Assembly: GCF_046105845.1 (NCBI RefSeq)
Contig: NZ_CP151004.1
Source of the DNA: Escherichia coli
Lineage (GTDB): Bacteria; Pseudomonadota; Gammaproteobacteria; Enterobacterales; Enterobacteriaceae
Length of the DNA: 64,000 nucleotides
Reading direction: 5' to 3' (one strand)
This document shows positions 11,966 through 64,000 of the stretch, one piece after another. Made by a program: the position numbers and the translations under genes. Under the pieces are notes generated by a model. It was not told the DNA's origin, did no database searches, and saw nothing but the letters and a program-made list of their open reading frames with translations. Position 1 is the stretch's first letter. Each line of letters begins with the position of its first letter.

Positions 11966-12054
<89 letters not shown>

Positions 12055-13643: not shown

Positions 13644-13761
<118 letters not shown>

Positions 13762-53862: not shown

Positions 53863-54097
53863 TCTATACCTACTCCTTCCCGTAACGTCTTTAATACGCT
53901 GTAAGTATTACTATACCTGCGCAACCAGACCCTGTGAAAAGTCCAGAATGCCATTTTCTGCATTATTCACATATTTGATAAAAACTCTCTATCAAAGCGA
54001 CGTTTTGATAAAAAAATATTGTCCCCGAAGTGATGGGAAAAGTCTTAGCGGCAATGCAGAATAGAAAGTGCTCATCTTTTATTTCCCGGGAGGGGAA

Positions 54098-55306
54098 ATG
54101 TCCCGCGTGTCGCAGGCGAGGAACCTGGGTAAATATTTCCTGCTCATCGATAATATGCTGGTCGTGCTGGGTTTCTTTGTTGTCTTCCCGCTGATCTCTA
54201 TCCGCTTCGTTGATCAAATGGGCTGGGCCGCCGTCATGGTCGGTATTGCCCTCGGCCTACGCCAGTTTATTCAGCAAGGTCTGGGTATTTTCGGCGGAGC
54301 AATTGCCGACCGCTTTGGTGCCAAACCGATGATTGTTACCGGTATGCTGATGCGTGCCGCCGGATTCGCCACAATGGGTATCGCCCACGAACCGTGGCTA
54401 CTGTGGTTTTCATGCCTGCTCTCGGGACTCGGCGGCACGTTGTTTGATCCGCCGCGTTCGGCGCTGGTGGTGAAACTAATCCGTCCACAACAGCGTGGTC
54501 GTTTTTTCTCGCTGTTGATGATGCAGGACAGTGCCGGTGCGGTCATTGGCGCATTGTTGGGTAGCTGGCTGTTGCAATACGACTTTCGCCTGGTCTGCGC
54601 CACAGGGGCAGTTTTGTTTGTGCTGTGTGCAGCGTTCAATGCGTGGTTGTTACCGGCATGGAAACTCTCCACCGTACGCACGCCCGTTCGCGAAGGCATG
54701 ACCCGCGTGATGCGCGACAAGCGTTTTGTCACCTATGTCCTGACACTGGCGGGTTACTACATGCTGGCTGTACAAGTGATGCTGATGCTGCCAATTATGG
54801 TCAACGACGTGGCGGGCGCGCCCTCTGCCGTTAAATGGATGTATGCCATTGAAGCGTGTCTGTCGTTAACGTTGCTCTATCCTATCGCCCGCTTGAGTGA
54901 AAAGTATTTTCGTCTGGAACACCGGTTGATGGCTGGGCTGTTGATAATGTCATTAAGCATGATGCCGGTGGGCATGGTCAGCGGCCTGCAACAACTTTTC
55001 ACCCTGATTTGTCTGTTTTATATCGGGTCGATCATTACCGAGCCTGCGCGTGAAACCTTAAGTGCTTCGCTGGCGGACGCAAGAGCTCGCGGCAGCTATA
55101 TGGGGTTTAGCCGTCTGGGTCTGGCGATTGGCGGCGCTATTGGTTATATCGGTGGCGGCTGGCTGTTTGACCTGGGCAAATCGGCGCACCAGCCAGAGCT
55201 TCCGTGGATGATGCTGGGCATTATTGGCATCTTCACTTTCCTTGCGATGGGTTGGCAGTTTAGTCAGAAACGCGCCGCGCGTCGTTTGCTGGAACGCGAC
55301 GCCTGA
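54098..55306 (+). CDS. mdtH: MFS multidrug efflux transporter MdtH (YceL)
   Basis: Recognised N-terminus [27 protein letters not shown] (402 aa) at 54098; ORF track over-extended 10 codons. Confidence 0.93.
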
Positions 55307-55369
55307 TTTGATACTCCCCCCTGACTCCTCCATACTGAAAGTGAACTGACAGCCAAATGGAGGAGTCAC

Positions 55370-56017
55370 GTGAAGCTATACATTTACGATCACTGCCCTT
55401 ACTGCCTCAAAGCCCGCATGATTTTCGGCCTGAAAAATATCCCCGTCGAATTACATGTTCTGCTCAACGACGACGCAGAAACACCCACCCGGATGGTCGG
55501 TCAAAAACAGGTTCCCATTCTGCAAAAAGATGACAGCCGCTATATGCCAGAAAGCATGGACATCGTTCACTATGTCGATAAACTCGACGGCAAACCGTTA
55601 CTGACCGGCAAACGTTCCCCTGCCATTGAAGAGTGGCTGCGCAAGGTCAATGGCTACGCCAACAAACTGCTGTTGCCGCGTTTTGCCAAATCAGCATTTG
55701 ATGAGTTTTCTACTCCTGCCGCGCGCAAATATTTCGTCGACAAGAAAGAGGCCAGCGCGGGTAATTTTGCCGACCTGCTGGCCCACTCTGACGGTCTGAT
55801 TAAGAATATCAGCGATGATTTACGTGCGCTGGACAAACTGATCGTCAAACCGAACGCCGTGAATGGCGAACTTTCGGAAGATGATATTCAGCTATTTCCG
55901 CTCCTGCGTAATCTGACGCTGGTAGCCGGAATCAACTGGCCAAGCCGCGTTGCTGATTACCGCGATAATATGGCGAAACAGACACAAATCAATTTGTTAT
56001 CATCAATGGCGATTTAA
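55370..56017 (+). CDS. grxB: Glutaredoxin 2
   Basis: 215 aa, MKLYIYDHCPYCLKARMIFGL (CPYC active site). Confidence 0.96.
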   Translation: MKLYIYDHCPYCLKARMIFGLKNIPVELHVLLNDDAETPTRMVGQKQVPILQKDDSRYMPESMDIVHYVDKLDGKPLLTGKRSPAIEEWLRKVNGYANKLLLPRFAKSAFDEFSTPAARKYFVDKKEASAGNFADLLAHSDGLIKNISDDLRALDKLIVKPNAVNGELSEDDIQLFPLLRNLTLVAGINWPSRVADYRDNMAKQTQINLLSSMAI

Positions 56018-56150
56018 TCCTGACCCGCCGCGGCAGCCTGTATTCGCGGGTTGCCGCCGTTTTCAGTTTTTTCTGCTGGCGCGTTTATCGCTGGTGACAC
56101 ATGCTGCGTTGTGTCAGGATATTGACGCAGATTTCATGTCGAGGACTACC

Positions 56151-56711
56151 ATGAACAAGTTTTTATTTGCCGCTGCATTGATCGTCAGTGGCCTGCTCGT
56201 TGGCTGTAATCAACTCACCCAATACACCATCACCGAACAAGAAATTAACCAGTCGCTTGCGAAACATAATAATTTCTCAAAAGATATCGGTTTACCCGGC
56301 GTGGCTGACGCCCATATTGTTCTGACAAACCTGACCAGCCAAATTGGTCGCGAAGAGCCGAATAAGGTTACCCTAACCGGAGACGCCAATCTGGACATGA
56401 ACTCCCTGTTCGGTAGCCAGAAAGCGACCATGAAACTGAAGCTGAAAGCGCTGCCCGTGTTTGATAAAGAAAAAGGCGCGATCTTCCTGAAAGAGATGGA
56501 AGTGGTCGATGCGACGGTACAACCGGAAAAAATGCAAACGGTGATGCAAACGTTGCTTCCCTATTTGAACCAGGCATTACGCAATTACTTTAACCAGCAA
56601 CCTGCTTACGTCCTGCGCGAAGATGGCAGCCAGGGCGAAGCAATGGCGAAGAAACTGGCGAAAGGCATTGAAGTGAAGCCAGGCGAAATTGTCATTCCGT
56701 TTACTGATTAA
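56151..56711 (+). CDS. yceB: DUF1439 lipoprotein YceB
   Basis: ORF track over-extended (253 aa); recognised start MNKFLFAAALIVSGLLVGC (lipobox) at ATG 56151, 186 aa. Confidence 0.92.
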   Translation: MNKFLFAAALIVSGLLVGCNQLTQYTITEQEINQSLAKHNNFSKDIGLPGVADAHIVLTNLTSQIGREEPNKVTLTGDANLDMNSLFGSQKATMKLKLKALPVFDKEKGAIFLKEMEVVDATVQPEKMQTVMQTLLPYLNQALRNYFNQQPAYVLREDGSQGEAMAKKLAKGIEVKPGEIVIPFTD

Positions 56712-56715
56712 TCAC

Positions 56716-56742
56716 GAGGGCGCATTCGCGCCCTTTATTTTT
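56716..56742 (+). terminator. Intrinsic terminator after yceB
   Basis: Hairpin gagggcgcattcgcgccctt followed by T-run tattttt directly after yceB stop. Confidence 0.75.
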
Positions 56743-56750
56743 CGTGCAAA

Positions 56751-56765
56751 GGAAAACGTTTCCGC
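56751..56765 (+). promoter_or_regulatory. PurR operator (PUR box) in pyrC promoter
   Basis: Palindrome GGAAAACGTTTCCGC with the AAACGTTT core typical of PurR boxes, ~55 nt upstream of pyrC ATG. Confidence 0.65.
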
Positions 56766-56816
56766 TTATCCTTTGTGTCCGGCAAAAACATCCCTTCAGC
56801 CGGAGCATAGAGATTA

Positions 56817-57863
56817 ATGACTGCACCATCCCAGGTATTAAAGATCCGCCGCCCAGACGACTGGCACCTTCACCTCCGCGATGGCGACATGTTAAAAACT
56901 GTCGTGCCGTATACCAGCGAAATTTATGGACGGGCTATCGTAATGCCCAATCTGGCTCCGCCCGTGACCAGCGTTGGGGCCGCCGTGGCGTATCGCCAGC
57001 GTATTCTTGACGCCGTACCTGCCGGGCACGATTTCACCCCGCTGATGACCTGTTATTTGACAGATTCACTAGACCCTAATGAGCTGGAGCGCGGATTTAA
57101 CGAAGGCGTGTTCACCGCTGCAAAACTTTACCCGGCAAACGCAACTACTAACTCCAGTCACGGCGTGACGTCAGTTGACGCAATCATGCCGGTACTTGAG
57201 CGCATGGAAAAAATCGGTATGCCGTTACTGGTGCATGGTGAAGTGACACATGCAGATATCGACATTTTTGATCGTGAAGCGCGCTTTATAGAAAGCGTGA
57301 TGGAACCGCTGCGCCAGCGCCTGACCGCGCTGAAAGTCGTTTTTGAGCACATCACCACCAAAGACGCTGCCGACTATGTCCGTGACGGAAATGAACGGCT
57401 GGCTGCCACCATCACTCCGCAGCATCTGATGTTTAACCGCAACCATATGCTGGTTGGTGGCGTGCGTCCACACCTGTATTGTCTACCCATCCTCAAACGC
57501 AATATTCACCAACAGGCACTGCGTGAACTGGTCGCCAGCGGTTTTAATCGCGTATTCCTCGGTACGGATTCTGCGCCGCATGCACGTCATCGCAAAGAGA
57601 GCAGCTGCGGCTGCGCGGGCTGCTTCAACGCCCCAACCGCGCTGGGCAGTTACGCTACCGTCTTTGAAGAGATGAATGCTCTGCAGCACTTTGAAGCATT
57701 CTGTTCTGTAAACGGCCCGCAGTTCTATGGCTTGCCGGTCAACGACACATTCATCGAACTGGTCCGCGAAGAACAACAGGTTGCTGCAAGCATCGCACTG
57801 ACTGATGACACACTGGTGCCATTCCTCGCCGGGGAAACGGTACGCTGGTCCGTTAAACAATAA
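56817..57863 (+). CDS. pyrC: Dihydroorotase
   Basis: 348 aa, [27 protein letters not shown] (metal-binding HLH motif). Confidence 0.97.
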
Positions 57864-57898
57864 AAATCGTAGCTTCCTGTTGTCATTAGGTCATTTTA

Positions 57899-57918
57899 AC
57901 TGTATAAACAACCAGTAT
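57899..57918 (+). promoter_or_regulatory. LexA (SOS) box upstream of dinI
   Basis: ACTGTATAAACAACCAGTAT: CTGT-N8-CCAG close to LexA consensus CTGT-N8-ACAG, ~20 nt upstream of dinI ATG. Confidence 0.65.
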
Positions 57919-57936
57919 ATTCAACAGGGGGCTATT

Positions 57937-58182
57937 ATGCGAATTGAAGTCACCATAGCGAAAACTTCTCCATTGCCAGCTGGGGCTATTGACGCCCTGG
58001 CTGGCGAACTTTCCCGCCGTATTCAGTATGCGTTTCCTGATAATGAAGGCCACGTATCGGTACGTTATGCCGCAGCGAATAATTTATCGGTTATTGGCGC
58101 GACAAAAGAAGATAAACAGCGCATTAGCGAAATTCTCCAGGAAACGTGGGAAAGCGCCGATGACTGGTTTGTCAGCGAATAA
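57937..58182 (+). CDS. dinI: DNA damage-inducible protein I
   Basis: Recognised 81 aa MRIEVTIAKTSPLPAGAIDALAGELSRRIQYAF...; ORF track entry 57805..58182 is over-extended upstream. Confidence 0.95.
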   Translation: MRIEVTIAKTSPLPAGAIDALAGELSRRIQYAFPDNEGHVSVRYAAANNLSVIGATKEDKQRISEILQETWESADDWFVSE

Positions 58183-58203
58183 TATGCAGTGATTTTTGTT
58201 TTT

Positions 58204-58226
58204 GCCGGGTCGCCCCGGCTTTTTTA
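58204..58226 (+). terminator. Intrinsic terminator after dinI
   Basis: Hairpin gccgggtcgccccggc followed by tttttt. Confidence 0.8.
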
Positions 58227-58471
58227 TTTTACTTACGAATTTCGAGTACAAAATTTCTACACTTCCTCAAAATAATTGCACAATATGCTAAAAAAATATG
58301 AATGACATGCTGTTTTATTGTTCATATAAATCTTAAAAGCAAAAATTTATCTGTTCCCCCCTTTAAAAATTCGGTGAATACCCTTACTTATTGGTATACT
58401 GAAGTTGCTTCAGATAAAAACGCATTGAACCTCGAATAACGTTGTCTAGTAACACGAATTAGGGGGCCATG

Positions 58472-58726
58472 ATGGAAAAAAATAATGAAGTCATTCAGAC
58501 TCATCCGCTCGTAGGGTGGGACATCAGCACCGTTGATAGCTATGATGCGCTGATGTTGCGTTTGCACTACCAGACCCCAAATAAGTCCGAGCAGGAAGGG
58601 ACTGAAGTTGGTCAGACGCTCTGGTTAACCACTGATGTTGCCAGACAATTTATTTCGATATTAGAAGCAGGAATCGCCAAAATTGAATCCGGTGATTTCC
58701 CGGTAAACGAGTATCGGCGTCATTAA
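58472..58726 (+). CDS. bssS: Biofilm regulator BssS (YceP)
   Basis: MEKNNEVIQTHPLVGWDISTVDSYDALMLRLHYQ, 84 aa from second ATG (the ORF track starts one Met earlier at 58469). Confidence 0.93.
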   Translation: MEKNNEVIQTHPLVGWDISTVDSYDALMLRLHYQTPNKSEQEGTEVGQTLWLTTDVARQFISILEAGIAKIESGDFPVNEYRRH

Positions 58727-58840
58727 CATGACATGACCATCCACCCAAAAGGCACCTCACCGGTGCCTTTACCATTTCTGGGTTGTATATCTGCATTCAG
58801 TTAATTACTCTGCTTAAACCATGAGAGCAGAGAGAAAAAA

Positions 58841-59959
58841 ATGAAATACGATCTCATCATTATTGGCAGCGGTTCCGTAGGCGCTGCCGCCGGGTATTAT
58901 GCAACCCGTGCCGGTTTAAACGTGCTAATGACCGACGCCCATATGCCACCACATCAACACGGCAGCCACCACGGCGATACGCGATTAATTCGCCATGCTT
59001 ATGGTGAAGGCGAAAAGTATGTCCCGCTGGTTCTCCGCGCGCAAACGCTGTGGGATGAACTCTCCCGCCACAACGAAGAAGATCCCATTTTTGTACGCTC
59101 TGGCGTCATTAACCTTGGCCCGGCTGATTCCACATTTCTCGCCAACGTCGCCCACAGCGCCGAACAATGGCAACTCAACGTTGAAAAGCTCGATGCGCAA
59201 GGGATTATGGCCCGCTGGCCAGAAATACGCGTCCCGGACAACTACATCGGCTTATTTGAGACTGATTCCGGTTTTTTGCGCAGCGAACTGGCGATTAAAA
59301 CCTGGATCCAACTGGCGAAGGAAGCGGGCTGTGCGCAGCTGTTCAACTGCCCGGTCACCGCAATTCGTCATGACGATGATGGCGTAACTATTGAAACGGC
59401 TGACGGTGATTATCAGGCGAAAAAAGCGATTGTCTGCGCGGGAACATGGGTAAAAGACCTGCTCCCGGAGTTGCCTGTCCAGCCCGTACGCAAAGTATTT
59501 GCCTGGTATCAGGCCGATGGGCGCTATAGCGTGAAGAATAAATTCCCGGCGTTTACCGGTGAACTTCCCAATGGCGATCAATATTATGGTTTTCCGGCAG
59601 AAAACGACGCGTTGAAGATTGGCAAACATAACGGAGGCCAGGTTATCCATTCAGCGGATGAACGTGTTCCGTTTGCGGAAGTGGTCAGCGATGGTTCGGA
59701 AGCCTTCCCGTTCTTGCGCAATGTATTGCCGGGTATCGGTTGCTGCCTGTACGGCGCTGCCTGCACCTATGATAATTCGCCTGACGAAGATTTTATTATC
59801 GATACCCTACCCGGCCACGATAATACACTGCTCATTACCGGCCTGAGTGGGCACGGTTTTAAATTTGCGTCAGTTTTAGGGGAAATAGCTGCCGATTTTG
59901 CGCAAGACAAAAAAAGCGATTTTGATTTGACGCCATTCAGGCTTTCCCGCTTCCAATAA
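58841..59959 (+). CDS. solA: N-methyl-L-tryptophan oxidase
   Basis: 372 aa, [25 protein letters not shown] (FAD Rossmann GxGxxG). Confidence 0.96.
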
Positions 59960-59968
59960 TCATCATTA

Positions 59969-59993
59969 CGGCCTCCAGAATGAGGCCGTTTTT
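59969..59993 (+). terminator. Intrinsic terminator after solA
   Basis: Stem cggcctc / gaggccg with 6-nt loop followed by ttttt. Confidence 0.8.
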
Positions 59994-60006
59994 ACAGGAG
60001 TATTTA

Positions 60007-60120
60007 ATGCGTCGGCTGTTGCACTATCTCATCAATAATATTCGCGAGCATCTGATGCTTTATCTTTTTCTCTGGGGATTGTTGGCAATTATGGATCTGA
60101 TCTATGTGTTTTATTTTTAG
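60007..60120 (+). CDS. yceO: Small hydrophobic protein YceO
   Basis: ATG 60007 preceded by AGGAG Shine-Dalgarno (59996-60000); translates [37 protein letters not shown] (37 aa). An in-frame ATG at 59980 would give 46 aa but lies inside the solA terminator stem. Confidence 0.7.
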
Positions 60121-60381
60121 TTTTTCCACACTGACATAAACTGACAAATATTTAATCTCCCTTTCATTTAGCGTGAAAAATTGAATGAGATTATTCCTGC
60201 TTCAACAGCACTCACCAGACATCTCTGATGCTGAACCCACTAAACTTATGAAGATTCTTTCATTATTAATTCAAAATTATTGAAATAAAAATAAATATCA
60301 TTCAATTTGTTATTTTTGTGTTGCAATTCATTCTCCGACACGCCATTTTCTTTCTCTCGCAAATTCGTTTTGGATGCACTT

Positions 60382-60948
60382 ATGTCATTCACAAATACCC
60401 CTGAACGCTATGGTGTTATATCTGCGGCCTTCCATTGGCTAAGCGCAATTATTGTCTACGGCATGTTTGCTTTAGGTCTGTGGATGGTCACGCTCAGTTA
60501 TTACGATGGCTGGTATCACAAAGCACCCGAACTGCATAAAAGCATCGGTATTTTGTTAATGATGGGGCTGGTTATTCGCGTTCTGTGGCGCGTCATATCT
60601 CCACCGCCGGGTCCGCTGCAAAGTTATTCGCCCATGACTCGTCTTGGCGCAAAGGCTGGACATCTCGCATTGTACTTATTGCTGTTTGCCATCGGCATCA
60701 GCGGCTATCTGATCTCAACTGCCGATGGTAAACCGATCAGCGTTTTTGGCTGGTTTGACGTCCCCGCGACCCTCGCCGACGCTGGCGCACAGGCTGACTT
60801 TGCCGGTGCCCTGCATTTTTGGCTCGCGTGGAGCGTCGTAGTACTGTCCGTTATGCACGGATTTATGGCCCTGAAGCATCATTTCATCGATAAAGACGAC
60901 ACTCTGAAGCGCATGCTGGGAAAGTCGTCATCTGACTATGGAGTATAA
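60382..60948 (+). CDS. yceJ: Cytochrome b561 homolog YceJ
   Basis: ORF track over-extended; recognised start MSFTNTPERYGVISAAFHWLSAIIVYGMFALG (188 aa) at 60382; His-containing transmembrane helices. Confidence 0.93.
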   Translation: MSFTNTPERYGVISAAFHWLSAIIVYGMFALGLWMVTLSYYDGWYHKAPELHKSIGILLMMGLVIRVLWRVISPPPGPLQSYSPMTRLGAKAGHLALYLLLFAIGISGYLISTADGKPISVFGWFDVPATLADAGAQADFAGALHFWLAWSVVVLSVMHGFMALKHHFIDKDDTLKRMLGKSSSDYGV

Positions 60949-60951
60949 AAA

Positions 60952-61527
60952 ATGAAAAAAAGCCTGCTTGGTTTAACCTTCGCTTCCCTGATGTTCTCTG
61001 CCGGTTCAGCGGTTGCCGCCGATTACAAAATTGACAAAGAAGGTCAGCACGCCTTTGTTAACTTCCGCATACAGCACCTTGGCTATAGCTGGTTATACGG
61101 CACCTTTAAAGATTTCGACGGTACTTTTACCTTTGATGAAAAAAATCCGGCTGCCGATAAAGTGAATGTGACAATTAACACCACCAGCGTCGATACTAAT
61201 CACGCCGAACGCGATAAACATCTTCGCAGTGCAGATTTCCTCAATACTGCAAAATATCCACAGGCAACATTCACCTCCACCAGCGTGAAGAAAGACGGTG
61301 ACGACCTGGATATTACCGGCGATCTGACGCTGAATGGCGTAACCAAACCCGTCACGCTGGAAGCGAAATTAATTGGTCAAGGCGACGACCCGTGGGGTGG
61401 TAAACGTGCAGGCTTCGAGGCCGAAGGCAAAATTAAGCTCAAGGACTTCAATATCAAAACAGATTTAGGTCCAGCTTCTCAGGAAGTGGATCTGATTATT
61501 TCAGTGGAAGGCGTACAGCAGAAGTAA
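60952..61527 (+). CDS. yceI: Periplasmic polyisoprenoid-binding protein YceI
   Basis: 191 aa with signal peptide [22 protein letters not shown]. Confidence 0.95.
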
Positions 61528-61568
61528 GAGTGAAATGTTGCCGGATGGCACGCATCCGGCAATGATAT

Positions 61569-62621
61569 TTATTCTGTTGGATCAGGAATGCCCAGTGTTG
61601 TATTCAGACGTCCACGAGACTTATTAAAGATCTTATTGCCATTTTCACGTCCTGCCCGACGGCGTCGCTGTTCTTCTGGCGGTAACGCGCTTTCTTCGCA
61701 GCAAATCTCACTACAACAACCTTTGTATTTTTCCGCACATACTGGACACTGAATAAACAGCAGGTGGCAGCCATCATTTTTGCAGTTGGTATGGCTGTCG
61801 CACGACGCACCGCACTGGTGGCAATGCGCGATAATCTCATCAGAGATACGTTCGCCCATCCGCTCGTCAAAAACAAAATTTTTGCCAATAAAACGTACCG
61901 GTAAACCCTGCTCGCGCGCCTTGCGGGCGTATTCAATAATTCCACCCTCGATATGCCAGACTTTATTGAATCCGTTATGTTTCATCCAGGCACTGGCTTT
62001 TTCACAACGAATGCCACCGGTGCAGTACATGACGATTTTTTTATCTTTATGTGCCTGCATCATCTCAACTGCTTTTGGCAACTGCTCACGGAAGGTATCT
62101 GCCGGAATTTCCAGCGCGTTTTCAAAGTGCCCCACTTCATACTCATAGTGGTTACGCATGTCGATAAACAGTGCATCGGGATCGTCAAGCATGGCGTTCA
62201 CTTCCGCCGCTTGCAAATACTCACCCACATTACTGGCATCGAAGTGAGGATCATCAATACCGTCGGCAACAATGCGATCGCGTACCTTCATGCGCAGTAC
62301 CCAGAAGGATTTCCCGTCATCATCCAACGCGATATTCAGGCGTATGCCCTCTAAAGCCGGGTCGAAGGCATAGAGCTGCGCGCGAAATGTTTCAACATTG
62401 CTCGCAGGTACGCTGATTTGCGCGTTAATGCCCTCATGCGCCAGATACACTCGCCCAAAAACATTCAGCGCGGTAAACAGCTGATATAAAGCGTCACGGG
62501 TCGCCTTAGGATCGGCGATGTGGAAATACTTATAAAACGAAATGGTGGTTCGCGGTTCGCTCTCAGCCAACATTTTGGCTTTTAACGCGTCGTTGGAAAT
62601 GCGGTTGTGTAACACTGGCAT
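61569..62621 (-). CDS. trhO: tRNA uridine(34) hydroxylase TrhO (YceA), rhodanese-domain protein
   Basis: Recognised N-terminus [33 protein letters not shown] (350 aa) at 62621; rhodanese active-site [10 protein letters not shown]; Cys-rich C-terminus. Confidence 0.93.
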
Positions 62622-62845
62622 GGTGTACGGTTCCTGCGAGATGGGAAAGTAAAAATCCGCGGCATGATATAGCAATTATCGATAATTAACATCCACACAT
62701 TTTACGCTACATTTGCGCATTAAAAATTATTTGTTATTTACAAGCGCGGCAATTTCGCCCAGTCTTCAGTCACAAATTTTGGTTGCGGACGAAAAAATGC
62801 GACAATACATACAATTGCCCGTATAGGTTGAAAAACAGGATTGAT

Positions 62846-63766
62846 ATGACGAATCTACCCAAGTTCTCCACCGCACTACTTCATCCGCGTTATTGGTTAA
62901 CCTGGTTGGGTATTGGCGTACTTTGGTTAGTCGTGCAATTGCCCTACCCGGTTATCTACCGCCTCGGTTGTGGATTAGGAAAACTTGCGTTACGTTTTAT
63001 GAAACGACGCGCAAAAATTGTGCATCGCAACCTGGAACTGTGCTTCCCGGAAATGAGCGAACAAGAACGCCGTAAAATGGTGGTGAAGAATTTCGAATCC
63101 GTTGGCATGGGACTGATGGAAACTGGCATGGCGTGGTTCTGGCCGGACCGCAGAATCGCCCGATGGACGGAAGTGATCGGCATGGAACACATTCGTGACG
63201 TGCAGGCGCAAAAACGCGGCATCCTGTTAGTTGGCATCCATTTTCTGACCCTGGAGCTGGGTGCGCGGCAGTTTGGTATACAGGAGCCGGGCATTGGCGT
63301 TTACCGCCCGAACGATAATCCACTGATTGACTGGCTACAAACCTGGGGCCGTTTGCGCTCAAATAAATCGATGCTCGACCGCAAAGATTTAAAAGGCATG
63401 ATTAAAGCCCTGAAAAAAGGCGAAGTGGTCTGGTACGCACCGGATCATGATTACGGCCCGCGCTCAAGCGTTTTCGTCCCGTTGTTTGCCGTTGAGCAGG
63501 CTGCGACCACAACCGGAACCTGGATGCTGGCACGGATGTCCGGCGCATGTCTGGTGCCCTTCGTTCCACGCCGTAAGCCAGATGGCAAAGGGTATCAGTT
63601 GATTATGCTGCCGCCAGAGTGTTCTCCGCCGCTGGATGATGCCGAAACCACCGCCGCGTGGATGAACAAAGTGGTCGAAAAATGCATCATGATGGCACCA
63701 GAGCAGTATATGTGGTTACACCGTCGCTTTAAAACACGTCCGGAAGGCGTTCCTTCACGCTATTAA
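62846..63766 (+). CDS. lpxL: Lipid A biosynthesis lauroyltransferase LpxL (HtrB)
   Basis: Recognised N-terminus [28 protein letters not shown] (306 aa) at 62846; ORF track over-extended 21 codons. Confidence 0.95.
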
Positions 63767-63787
63767 ATCTCCCAAGCCGGATGCTTC

Positions 63788-64000
63788 TGAACTGTACCCC
63801 AAATGTTGGACATAATCTGACATCTGAAGGTGCAGTTTATGAAACATTCATTTGAAGTAAAACTTGCCGCTGTAAATCATTACCTGGCTGGTCATGCAGG
63901 CATCATTTCTACGGCAAAACTCTTTCAACTTTCTCACACCAGCCTCTCACACTGGATTAATCTTTTTCTTCTTCACGGTCCTCGGGCACTGGATTGCAGA
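63788..64000 (+). mobile_element. Left end of an IS3-family (IS150-like) insertion sequence, truncated by window end
   Basis: Begins TGAACTGTACCCCAAATGTTGGAC (TG-initiated terminal repeat-like end) 22 bp after lpxL stop; contains start of a transposase OrfA-like ORF. Confidence 0.55.
63839..64000 (+). CDS. IS3-family transposase OrfA (helix-turn-helix), N-terminal fragment; continues beyond window
   Basis: ATG 63839 translates MKHSFEVKLAAVNHYLAGHAGIISTAKLFQLSHTSLSHWINLFLLHGPRAL..., which aligns by eye with IS150 OrfA (…FEKRLEVVNHY…RIISARFGV…TQVRTWVALYEKHGEKGL). Not the MdtG N-terminus expected here in K-12. Confidence 0.55.
   Translation, partial: MKHSFEVKLAAVNHYLAGHAGIISTAKLFQLSHTSLSHWINLFLLHGPRALDCR

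Follow-up and report, generated by a model that had tools for sequence, protein, structure and literature searches.

The window analysed here, a stretch of 64,000 nucleotides from Escherichia coli (NZ_CP151004.1), ends 213 bp inside an insertion sequence (IS) lying downstream of lpxL (Table 1). The stop codon of lpxL (TAA, 63764–63766) is followed by a spacer of 21 bp (atctcccaagccggatgcttc, 63767–63787), and directly 3' of this spacer stands the sequence TGAACTGTACCCCAAATGTTGGAC (63788–63811), which starts with TGAACTG and is a TG-type terminus. The original prediction had placed the end of the element 22 bp after the lpxL stop. The junction itself is real, but the spacer is one base shorter, the earlier figure being either one off or counting position 63788 itself. 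The terminal 16-mer of the IS occurs once in the window, compared with 0.05 occurrences expected by chance. A scan of the full 64 kb found no second end of this element. It had been correctly flagged as the sole visible mobile DNA at this edge of the window.

Between the left terminal inverted repeat (IRL) and the first ORF of the element, the motif GAAGGTG at 63827–63833 (AGG core 63829–63831) looks like a ribosome-binding site for orfA. A consensus scan detected no sigma-70 promoter on the plus strand of this leader, and likewise no consensus promoter or terminator on the plus strand at the lpxL–IS junction. The ORF starts with ATG at 63839 (translation MKHSFEVKLAAVNHYLAGHAGIISTAKLFQLSHTSLSHWINLFLLHGPRALDCR) and stays open to position 64000, so that it is cut by the window edge, as previously noted.

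Table 1. Features at the end of the window (plus strand throughout)
Feature	Position	Strand	Remark
lpxL (Kdo2-lipid IVA lauroyltransferase)	62846–63766	+	intact; 306-aa product, PF03279; annotated lpxL in matching genomes
Hairpin 5' arm, GCCGGATGC	63776–63784	+	partner arm GCATCCGGC predicted beyond the IS, outside the window
TTC, first three hairpin loop bases	63785–63787	+	would be the left copy of a predicted 3-bp target-site duplication; GF43 insertion at the same point
IS1397 IRL, TGAACTGTACCCCAAATGTTGGAC	63788–63811	+	differs from the IRL of the other copies only at base 8
Private substitution in IRL, T for C at IS position 8	63795	+	C in all 25 other copies read
IS1397 leader, IRL to orfA	63812–63838	+	read directly from the sequence
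orfA, first 54 codons; N-terminal helix-turn-helix (HTH) of OrfA/OrfAB	63839–64000	+	full orfA would end at window-equivalent 64360
Visible 213 bp of the 1,432-bp IS1397 copy	63788–64000	+	remainder would be window-equivalent 64001–65219

In K-12, whose lpxL–mdtG region had been proposed for comparison, the spacer between both genes measures 171 bp and contains an intact hairpin without any insertion. The MdtG start (MSPCEND) lies 171 bp past lpxL in that genome, and the ORF of the window differs from MdtG, as had been claimed. Because the K-12 spacer holds nothing comparable, the window-end fragment is inserted DNA and not a native regulator. When the 213 bp were compared with 5,426 complete E. 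coli genomes, 5,456 matching places were found in 1,719 of them, with identities of up to 99.5% (E = 4e-105) and no match at 100%. These places are annotated as "IS3-like element IS1397 family transposase", which bears out the predicted IS3-family end; carrier genomes possess a median of two copies, nearly all of them chromosomal.

IS1397 is an element of 1,432 bp that belongs to the IS3 family and is a relative of IS150. A native HTH regulator, which had been named as a refuting alternative, or IS150 itself could also be considered for this fragment, since its N-terminus is an HTH and its IRL resembles that of IS150 at 19 of 24 positions. However, the lpxL–mdtG spacer carries no such gene, neither in K-12 nor in over 5,400 further genomes, and the IS150 proteins share only 27% (OrfA) and 51% (OrfB) identity with those of the element, whereas IS1397 copies match it at 98.4–99.8% on the DNA level. 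Both possibilities were rejected and we assign them no weight. The earlier assignment to an IS150-type OrfA was thus right at the subgroup level, both OrfA proteins having the same length of 173 aa, while the more exact identity is IS1397. The element in the window is a copy of a known IS with published behaviour and not a new one, and its orientation agrees with that of lpxL and mdtG.

The sequence beyond the window edge was obtained by looking up the exact TrhO allele encoded just upstream, which is rare (8 contigs). The reverse complement of contig DBAMWG010000009.1 (GCA_044249515.1; 202,309 bp) is 100% identical to window positions 55569–64000 and continues for another 1,199 bp, reaching nucleotide 1412 of the IS, 20 bp short of its expected end. 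The same lpxL–IS junction is present in a Logan contig of SRR12605517. In comparison with ten annotated IS1397 copies, the extended copy is collinear and without indels, carrying 3–22 substitutions over the 1,412 bp recovered (98.4–99.8% identity), and its nearest relative is the pepN/ssuB copy of strain 118UI. Every contig recovered for the window lineage stops either within the IS or at the hairpin. No exact match was obtained for the left-junction 38-mer in species-representative genomes, for the left-junction 30-mer in the JGI metagenomes, or for the predicted right junction in the collection scanned.

On contig DBAMWG010000009.1, orfA encodes 173 aa (IS nt 52–573; window-equivalent 63839–64360), a slippery A AAA AAG sequence (A7G) is located at IS nt 524–531, and orfB is open in the −1 frame up to IS nt 1397, giving an OrfAB fusion of 449 aa. 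An OrfB with a DDE core reached by −1 frameshifting, which had been suggested as a check on the IS assignment, is therefore present on a contig identical to the window. OrfAB scores 388 bits on the NCBIfam model NF033516 "IS3 family transposase" (cutoff 160), and its Pfam domains comprise HTH_28 twice, HTH_21, rve (E = 5e-21), rve_2 and rve_3, with HTH_28 spanning OrfA residues 8–57. Exactly this 449-aa protein recurs at other places in about 80 blocks from complete genomes, and RefSeq annotates a "programmed frameshift" in sister IS1397 copies. Terminal repeats of the TG...CA type (the right repeat, IRR, being read from other copies), an orfB in the −1 frame with A7G and a DDE transposase domain together place the element in the IS3 family. 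The window lineage shares with the IS1397 reference the terminal repeat, the orfA / A7G / orfB layout, the 449-aa OrfAB and a GCCGGATGC-type hairpin loop as target. It differs from other IS1397 copies by the private T at IRL position 8. In complete IS1397 copies, where the IRR ends with ...CAGTTCA, IRL and IRR match at 15 of the 16 outer positions, and position 8 (C in IRL, A in IRR) is the sole mismatch. Since both repeats already differ there, the C-to-T change at 63795 is probably tolerated.

The A-run at about IS nt 524 varies between IS1397 copies, A7 being the usual form. One copy with A8 (CP063492.1) has orfA and orfB in a single frame and directly encodes OrfAB, while A6 was found in nine copies from recent assemblies (CP165150.1, CP164815.1, CP164897.1, JBBLVJ01, JBBLUL01). 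Because A6 recurs across all copies of several of these genomes, it may reflect homopolymer sequencing errors rather than biology. Strains M8 and Nissle 1917 carry IS1397 copies of 1,427 bp that bear the annotation of frameshifted pseudogenes, and in strain N3 the copy lacks one base of a G-run near IS nt 1350. Decay is thus common among copies of the element, alongside others that are intact.

The 12 bp preceding the IS (63776–63787) consist of GCCGGATGC plus TTC and represent one half of a hairpin. The hairpin resembles a palindromic unit (PU), the known specific target of IS1397, and had escaped the original prediction. At the empty site, as found in K-12, TUM14771 and others, the sequence reads GCCGGATGC-ttcaga(a/t)gg-GCATCCGGC, with the loop ttcagaagg in K-12. 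As RNA, the empty hairpin has a folding energy of −21.8 kcal/mol (z = −4.7 against shuffled sequences). REPs or PUs are recognized by a GCC(G/T)GATGCG head, an imperfect palindrome and a (C)TTATC(C/A)GGCCTAC tail, repeated genome-wide. The hairpin behind lpxL possesses the head GCCGGATGC, and its 3' arm GCATCCGGC is the perfect complement of this head, with neither a TTATC bulge nor a CTAC tail. Unlike a classical Y or Z PU, it is a short hairpin with perfectly complementary arms, in which the canonical inner stem and TTATC tail present at the 13 other sites described below are missing; the RefSeq record of K-12 annotates no REP feature at this position. IS1397 nevertheless uses this PU-like hairpin repeatedly, and in the window it has entered the central loop, the position known from PUs, with the IS abutting GCCGGATGC plus TTC and the empty allele forming a hairpin.

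This hairpin is polymorphic. The triplet before the 5' arm reads caT in most strains and caA in the window (63773–63775), where one extending base pair is lost, and the loop occurs with aagg or aatg and the 3' arm as GCATCCGGC or GTATCCGGC. An arm variant "gtatccggc", present in all three occupied alleles of complete genomes, was considered as insertion-linked and rejected, because it is also found at the empty site of genome L021. Elsewhere in the window, further PU/REP-type hairpins are situated at 33451–33520, about 11966–12000, 13645–13670 and 61540–61560. All are unoccupied and are potential IS1397 targets. One of them includes GCCGGATGCGGTTACTTCGCATCCGGC at 33451–33477 with additional head and tail motifs nearby, resembling a BIME.

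According to two reports (PMC1525189; PMC3184786), IS1397 inserts specifically into REPs/PUs, and its target specificity is set by the transposase. Its first description came from natural isolates of E. coli, and PMC1525189 cites Clement et al. 1999 and Wilde et al. 2001 and 2003 for its specific insertion into the PUs of BIMEs. From other genomes, we collected complete IS1397 copies together with their left and right junctions, which yielded 13 distinct loci. At 13 of 13, the element occupies the centre of a classical PU (GCCKGATGCG...CTTATCMGGCCTAC), flanked by duplications of 3–4 bp, two of them imperfect, and in both orientations. Seven of these loci have named neighbours (yhjE/yhjD, ruvB/znuB, ybaL/gsk, pepN/ssuB, yaeF/nlpE, zinT/msrQ and mutT/yacG); one further copy lies beside pgm, one between a DEAD-box helicase and a LysR-type regulator, and four at places without gene names. 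This survey reproduces the published targeting. Combined, the identity of the element, its extension and its position make it nearly certain that window positions 63788–64000 represent the left part of an IS1397 copy that is full-length and apparently functional and is inserted in the hairpin loop of the 171-bp lpxL–mdtG spacer.

Occupation of this particular hairpin is rare. The empty site is found in more than 5,400 genomes, and IS1397 is present in the hairpin in only 3 of the 5,426 complete genomes, strains GF43, N3 and BEC1-S17-ESBL-09 (BEC1; Table 2). The configuration of the window, with the IS at the TTC position and its IRL toward lpxL, occurs in none of the 5,426. In strain GF43, the junctions read gcTTC-IS-TTCagaagg. 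Because GF43 carries IS1397 at the same point with its own TTC duplication, integration does take place at the TTC junction of the window. When the hairpin is folded, TTC and AGG mirror each other about the centre of the loop.

Table 2. Occupied alleles of the lpxL–mdtG hairpin
Lineage or strain	Insertion point	IS orientation relative to lpxL	Target-site duplication
Window lineage	after TTC (loop start)	same	TTC, predicted
GF43	after TTC (loop start)	opposite	TTC on both sides
N3	after ...ttcagaAGG (loop end)	same	AGG
BEC1-S17-ESBL-09	after ...ttcagaAGG (loop end)	same	AGG

The occupied alleles also differ in sequence. The IS copies of N3 and BEC1 differ at 21 sites and their flanks by about 1.5%, while N3 and GF43 have a 100% identical left flank and yet carry different insertions. 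This suggests about four independent IS1397 hits on a single hairpin, each of them rare in the population. On the left side of the hairpin, the sequences of the two latter strains, N3 and GF43, agree completely along 2.4 kb (100% identity), but on the right side they diverge by 1.3% along 1.2 kb, and a recombination breakpoint between them appears to coincide with the hairpin or the IS. An inversion between the hairpin arms that would turn an N3-type into a GF43-type allele was rejected, since CCT flanks are expected in that case and TTC was observed.

Alternatively, the window allele could descend from the ancestral insertion of N3 and BEC1 and have later lost the 6 bp "agaagg" next to the IRL. 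IS orientation and hairpin are indeed shared with these two strains, and the junctions differ by exactly 6 bp. Against such a deletion stands, besides the GF43 allele that validates the TTC position with a duplication of its own, the divergence of the sequences involved: the IS of the window lineage differs from the BEC1 copy by 20 substitutions, its flanks differ from those of N3 and BEC1 by 1.0–1.25%, and 21 sites separate the IS subtypes of N3 and BEC1 from each other. Moreover, with more than 5,400 genomes having the empty site, shared ancestry would need massive loss of the element. We regard this history as extremely improbable and the window insertion as an event specific to its lineage that arose independently of those in the other three occupied alleles.

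Both histories predict different right junctions. A deletion would leave CAGTTCA-AGGG(C/T)ATCC, while a simple insertion should give CAGTTCA-TTCAGAAGG, in which TTC is duplicated and the loop is otherwise intact. Based on GF43, we predict the right junction of the window lineage to read ...CAGTTCA-TTC-AGAAGGG(C/T)ATCCGGC. For a simple insertion, the IS end GGTTTTGGGGTTCAGTTCA should thus be followed by TTC, AGAAGGG(C/T)ATCCGGCATT and mdtG, so that the DNA past the IS would be TTCAGAAGGG(C/T)ATCCGGCATT, and the expected order is IRR, TTC, agaagggcatccggc and mdtG. The TTC duplication and the adjacency of mdtG are both predictions of this kind.

The adjacency of mdtG also bears on whether a rearrangement has taken place at the IS or a larger accessory segment begins there, for instance through inversion or deletion between IS1397 copies or as part of a composite element, in which case mdtG would not be next. 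The extended contig does end inside the IS, and this break implies that the genome contains further copies of IS1397, between which recombination could occur. On the other hand, a contig break inside a multicopy IS is normal for short-read assembly, mdtG follows immediately in all three complete genomes with IS1397 in the hairpin, and all complete copies inspected are simple insertions whose duplications match or nearly match. A rearrangement is therefore very unlikely in our view, and the simple insertion is preferred. For the same reason, the earlier statement that the element "breaks K-12 synteny" was only partly right: the inserted DNA is real, but the wording is overstated, because in these three genomes gene order resumes with mdtG directly behind the IS.

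The repeated hits at mirror-image positions are consistent with recognition of the hairpin arms alone. It is conceivable, although we consider it rather doubtful, that the lpxL–mdtG hairpin is a natural minimal target of IS1397, i.e., a REP-like palindrome that lacks annotation, possesses no more than the GCCGGATGC/GCATCCGGC arms and has been hit about four independent times, at TTC and AGG and in both orientations. If this is true, the transposase would need only the arms and would measure its cut from either one, target choice could be dissected on a substrate of 27 bp, and IS1397 could occupy more hairpins than the REP catalogues list. Apart from this possibility, the insertion adds one more natural case of PU-loop targeting, with little beyond annotation.

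The window represents a sparsely sampled, mosaic and rare E. coli lineage. The nearest of the 5,426 complete genomes is only 99.1% identical over window positions 54000–64000. Genome L021, which shares the TrhO allele of the window, has 98.5% identical DNA and an empty site. The IS1397 insertion marks this rare lineage and explains why its draft assemblies break after lpxL. A lookup of the exact LpxL allele returned IS-rich genomes of about 4.8 Mb with an empty hairpin. These genomes (L004–L009, e.g. CP104423.1, CP019689.1 and CP022672.1) are IS1-rich and Shigella-like, and they encode the exact LpxL protein of the window next to an intact hairpin. About 170–1300 bp past lpxL, their mdtG is a stub of 65 aa, followed by other IS3-type (rve) genes. 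As the stub precedes these IS3-type genes, mdtG is disrupted by a different insertion in this group.

The general model for IS3-family elements, developed from IS911, IS2, IS3 and IS150, involves a frameshift-derived OrfAB and copy-out-paste-in transposition. Following this model, a −1 ribosomal frameshift at A AAA AAG would join OrfA, responsible for DNA binding, to OrfB with its DDE catalytic core. The resulting OrfAB would cut a single strand and transfer it between the two ends to produce a figure-eight, which would be resolved to a circular intermediate with abutted ends. The circle would then integrate through a staggered cut of 3–4 bp, and the transposase itself would steer this integration to PU hairpins, according to work cited in PMC1525189. 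In the window lineage, the insertion has likely removed the hairpin 3' of lpxL and extended the distance between lpxL and mdtG by 1.4 kb, upstream of the mdtG promoter region. Effects of the lost hairpin and the added spacing on the host are speculative.

Among known systems, one close comparison is IS150 of K-12 (insJ/insK, NC_000913.3 3720633–3722075). Like IS1397, it has an OrfA of 173 aa, an orfB in the −1 frame and a DDE core, and the similarity extends to its IRL (TGTACTGCACCC...TTGGAC). The two Pfam HTH motifs are a feature of IS1397 OrfA, and the low identity of the proteins given above makes IS150 a relative of the element and not a copy of it. To our knowledge, no PU-specific targeting has been described for IS150. 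ISKpn1 of Klebsiella pneumoniae (IS3 family) and IS621 (IS110 family) also target REP/PU hairpins, according to PMC1525189 and PMC3184786. ISKpn1 is distinguished from IS1397 by its preference for Klebsiella-type PUs. IS621, in turn, uses an unrelated IS110-family recombinase and, as described in PMC3184786, inserts beside the palindrome and not in its loop, the place occupied by IS1397 in the hairpin behind lpxL.
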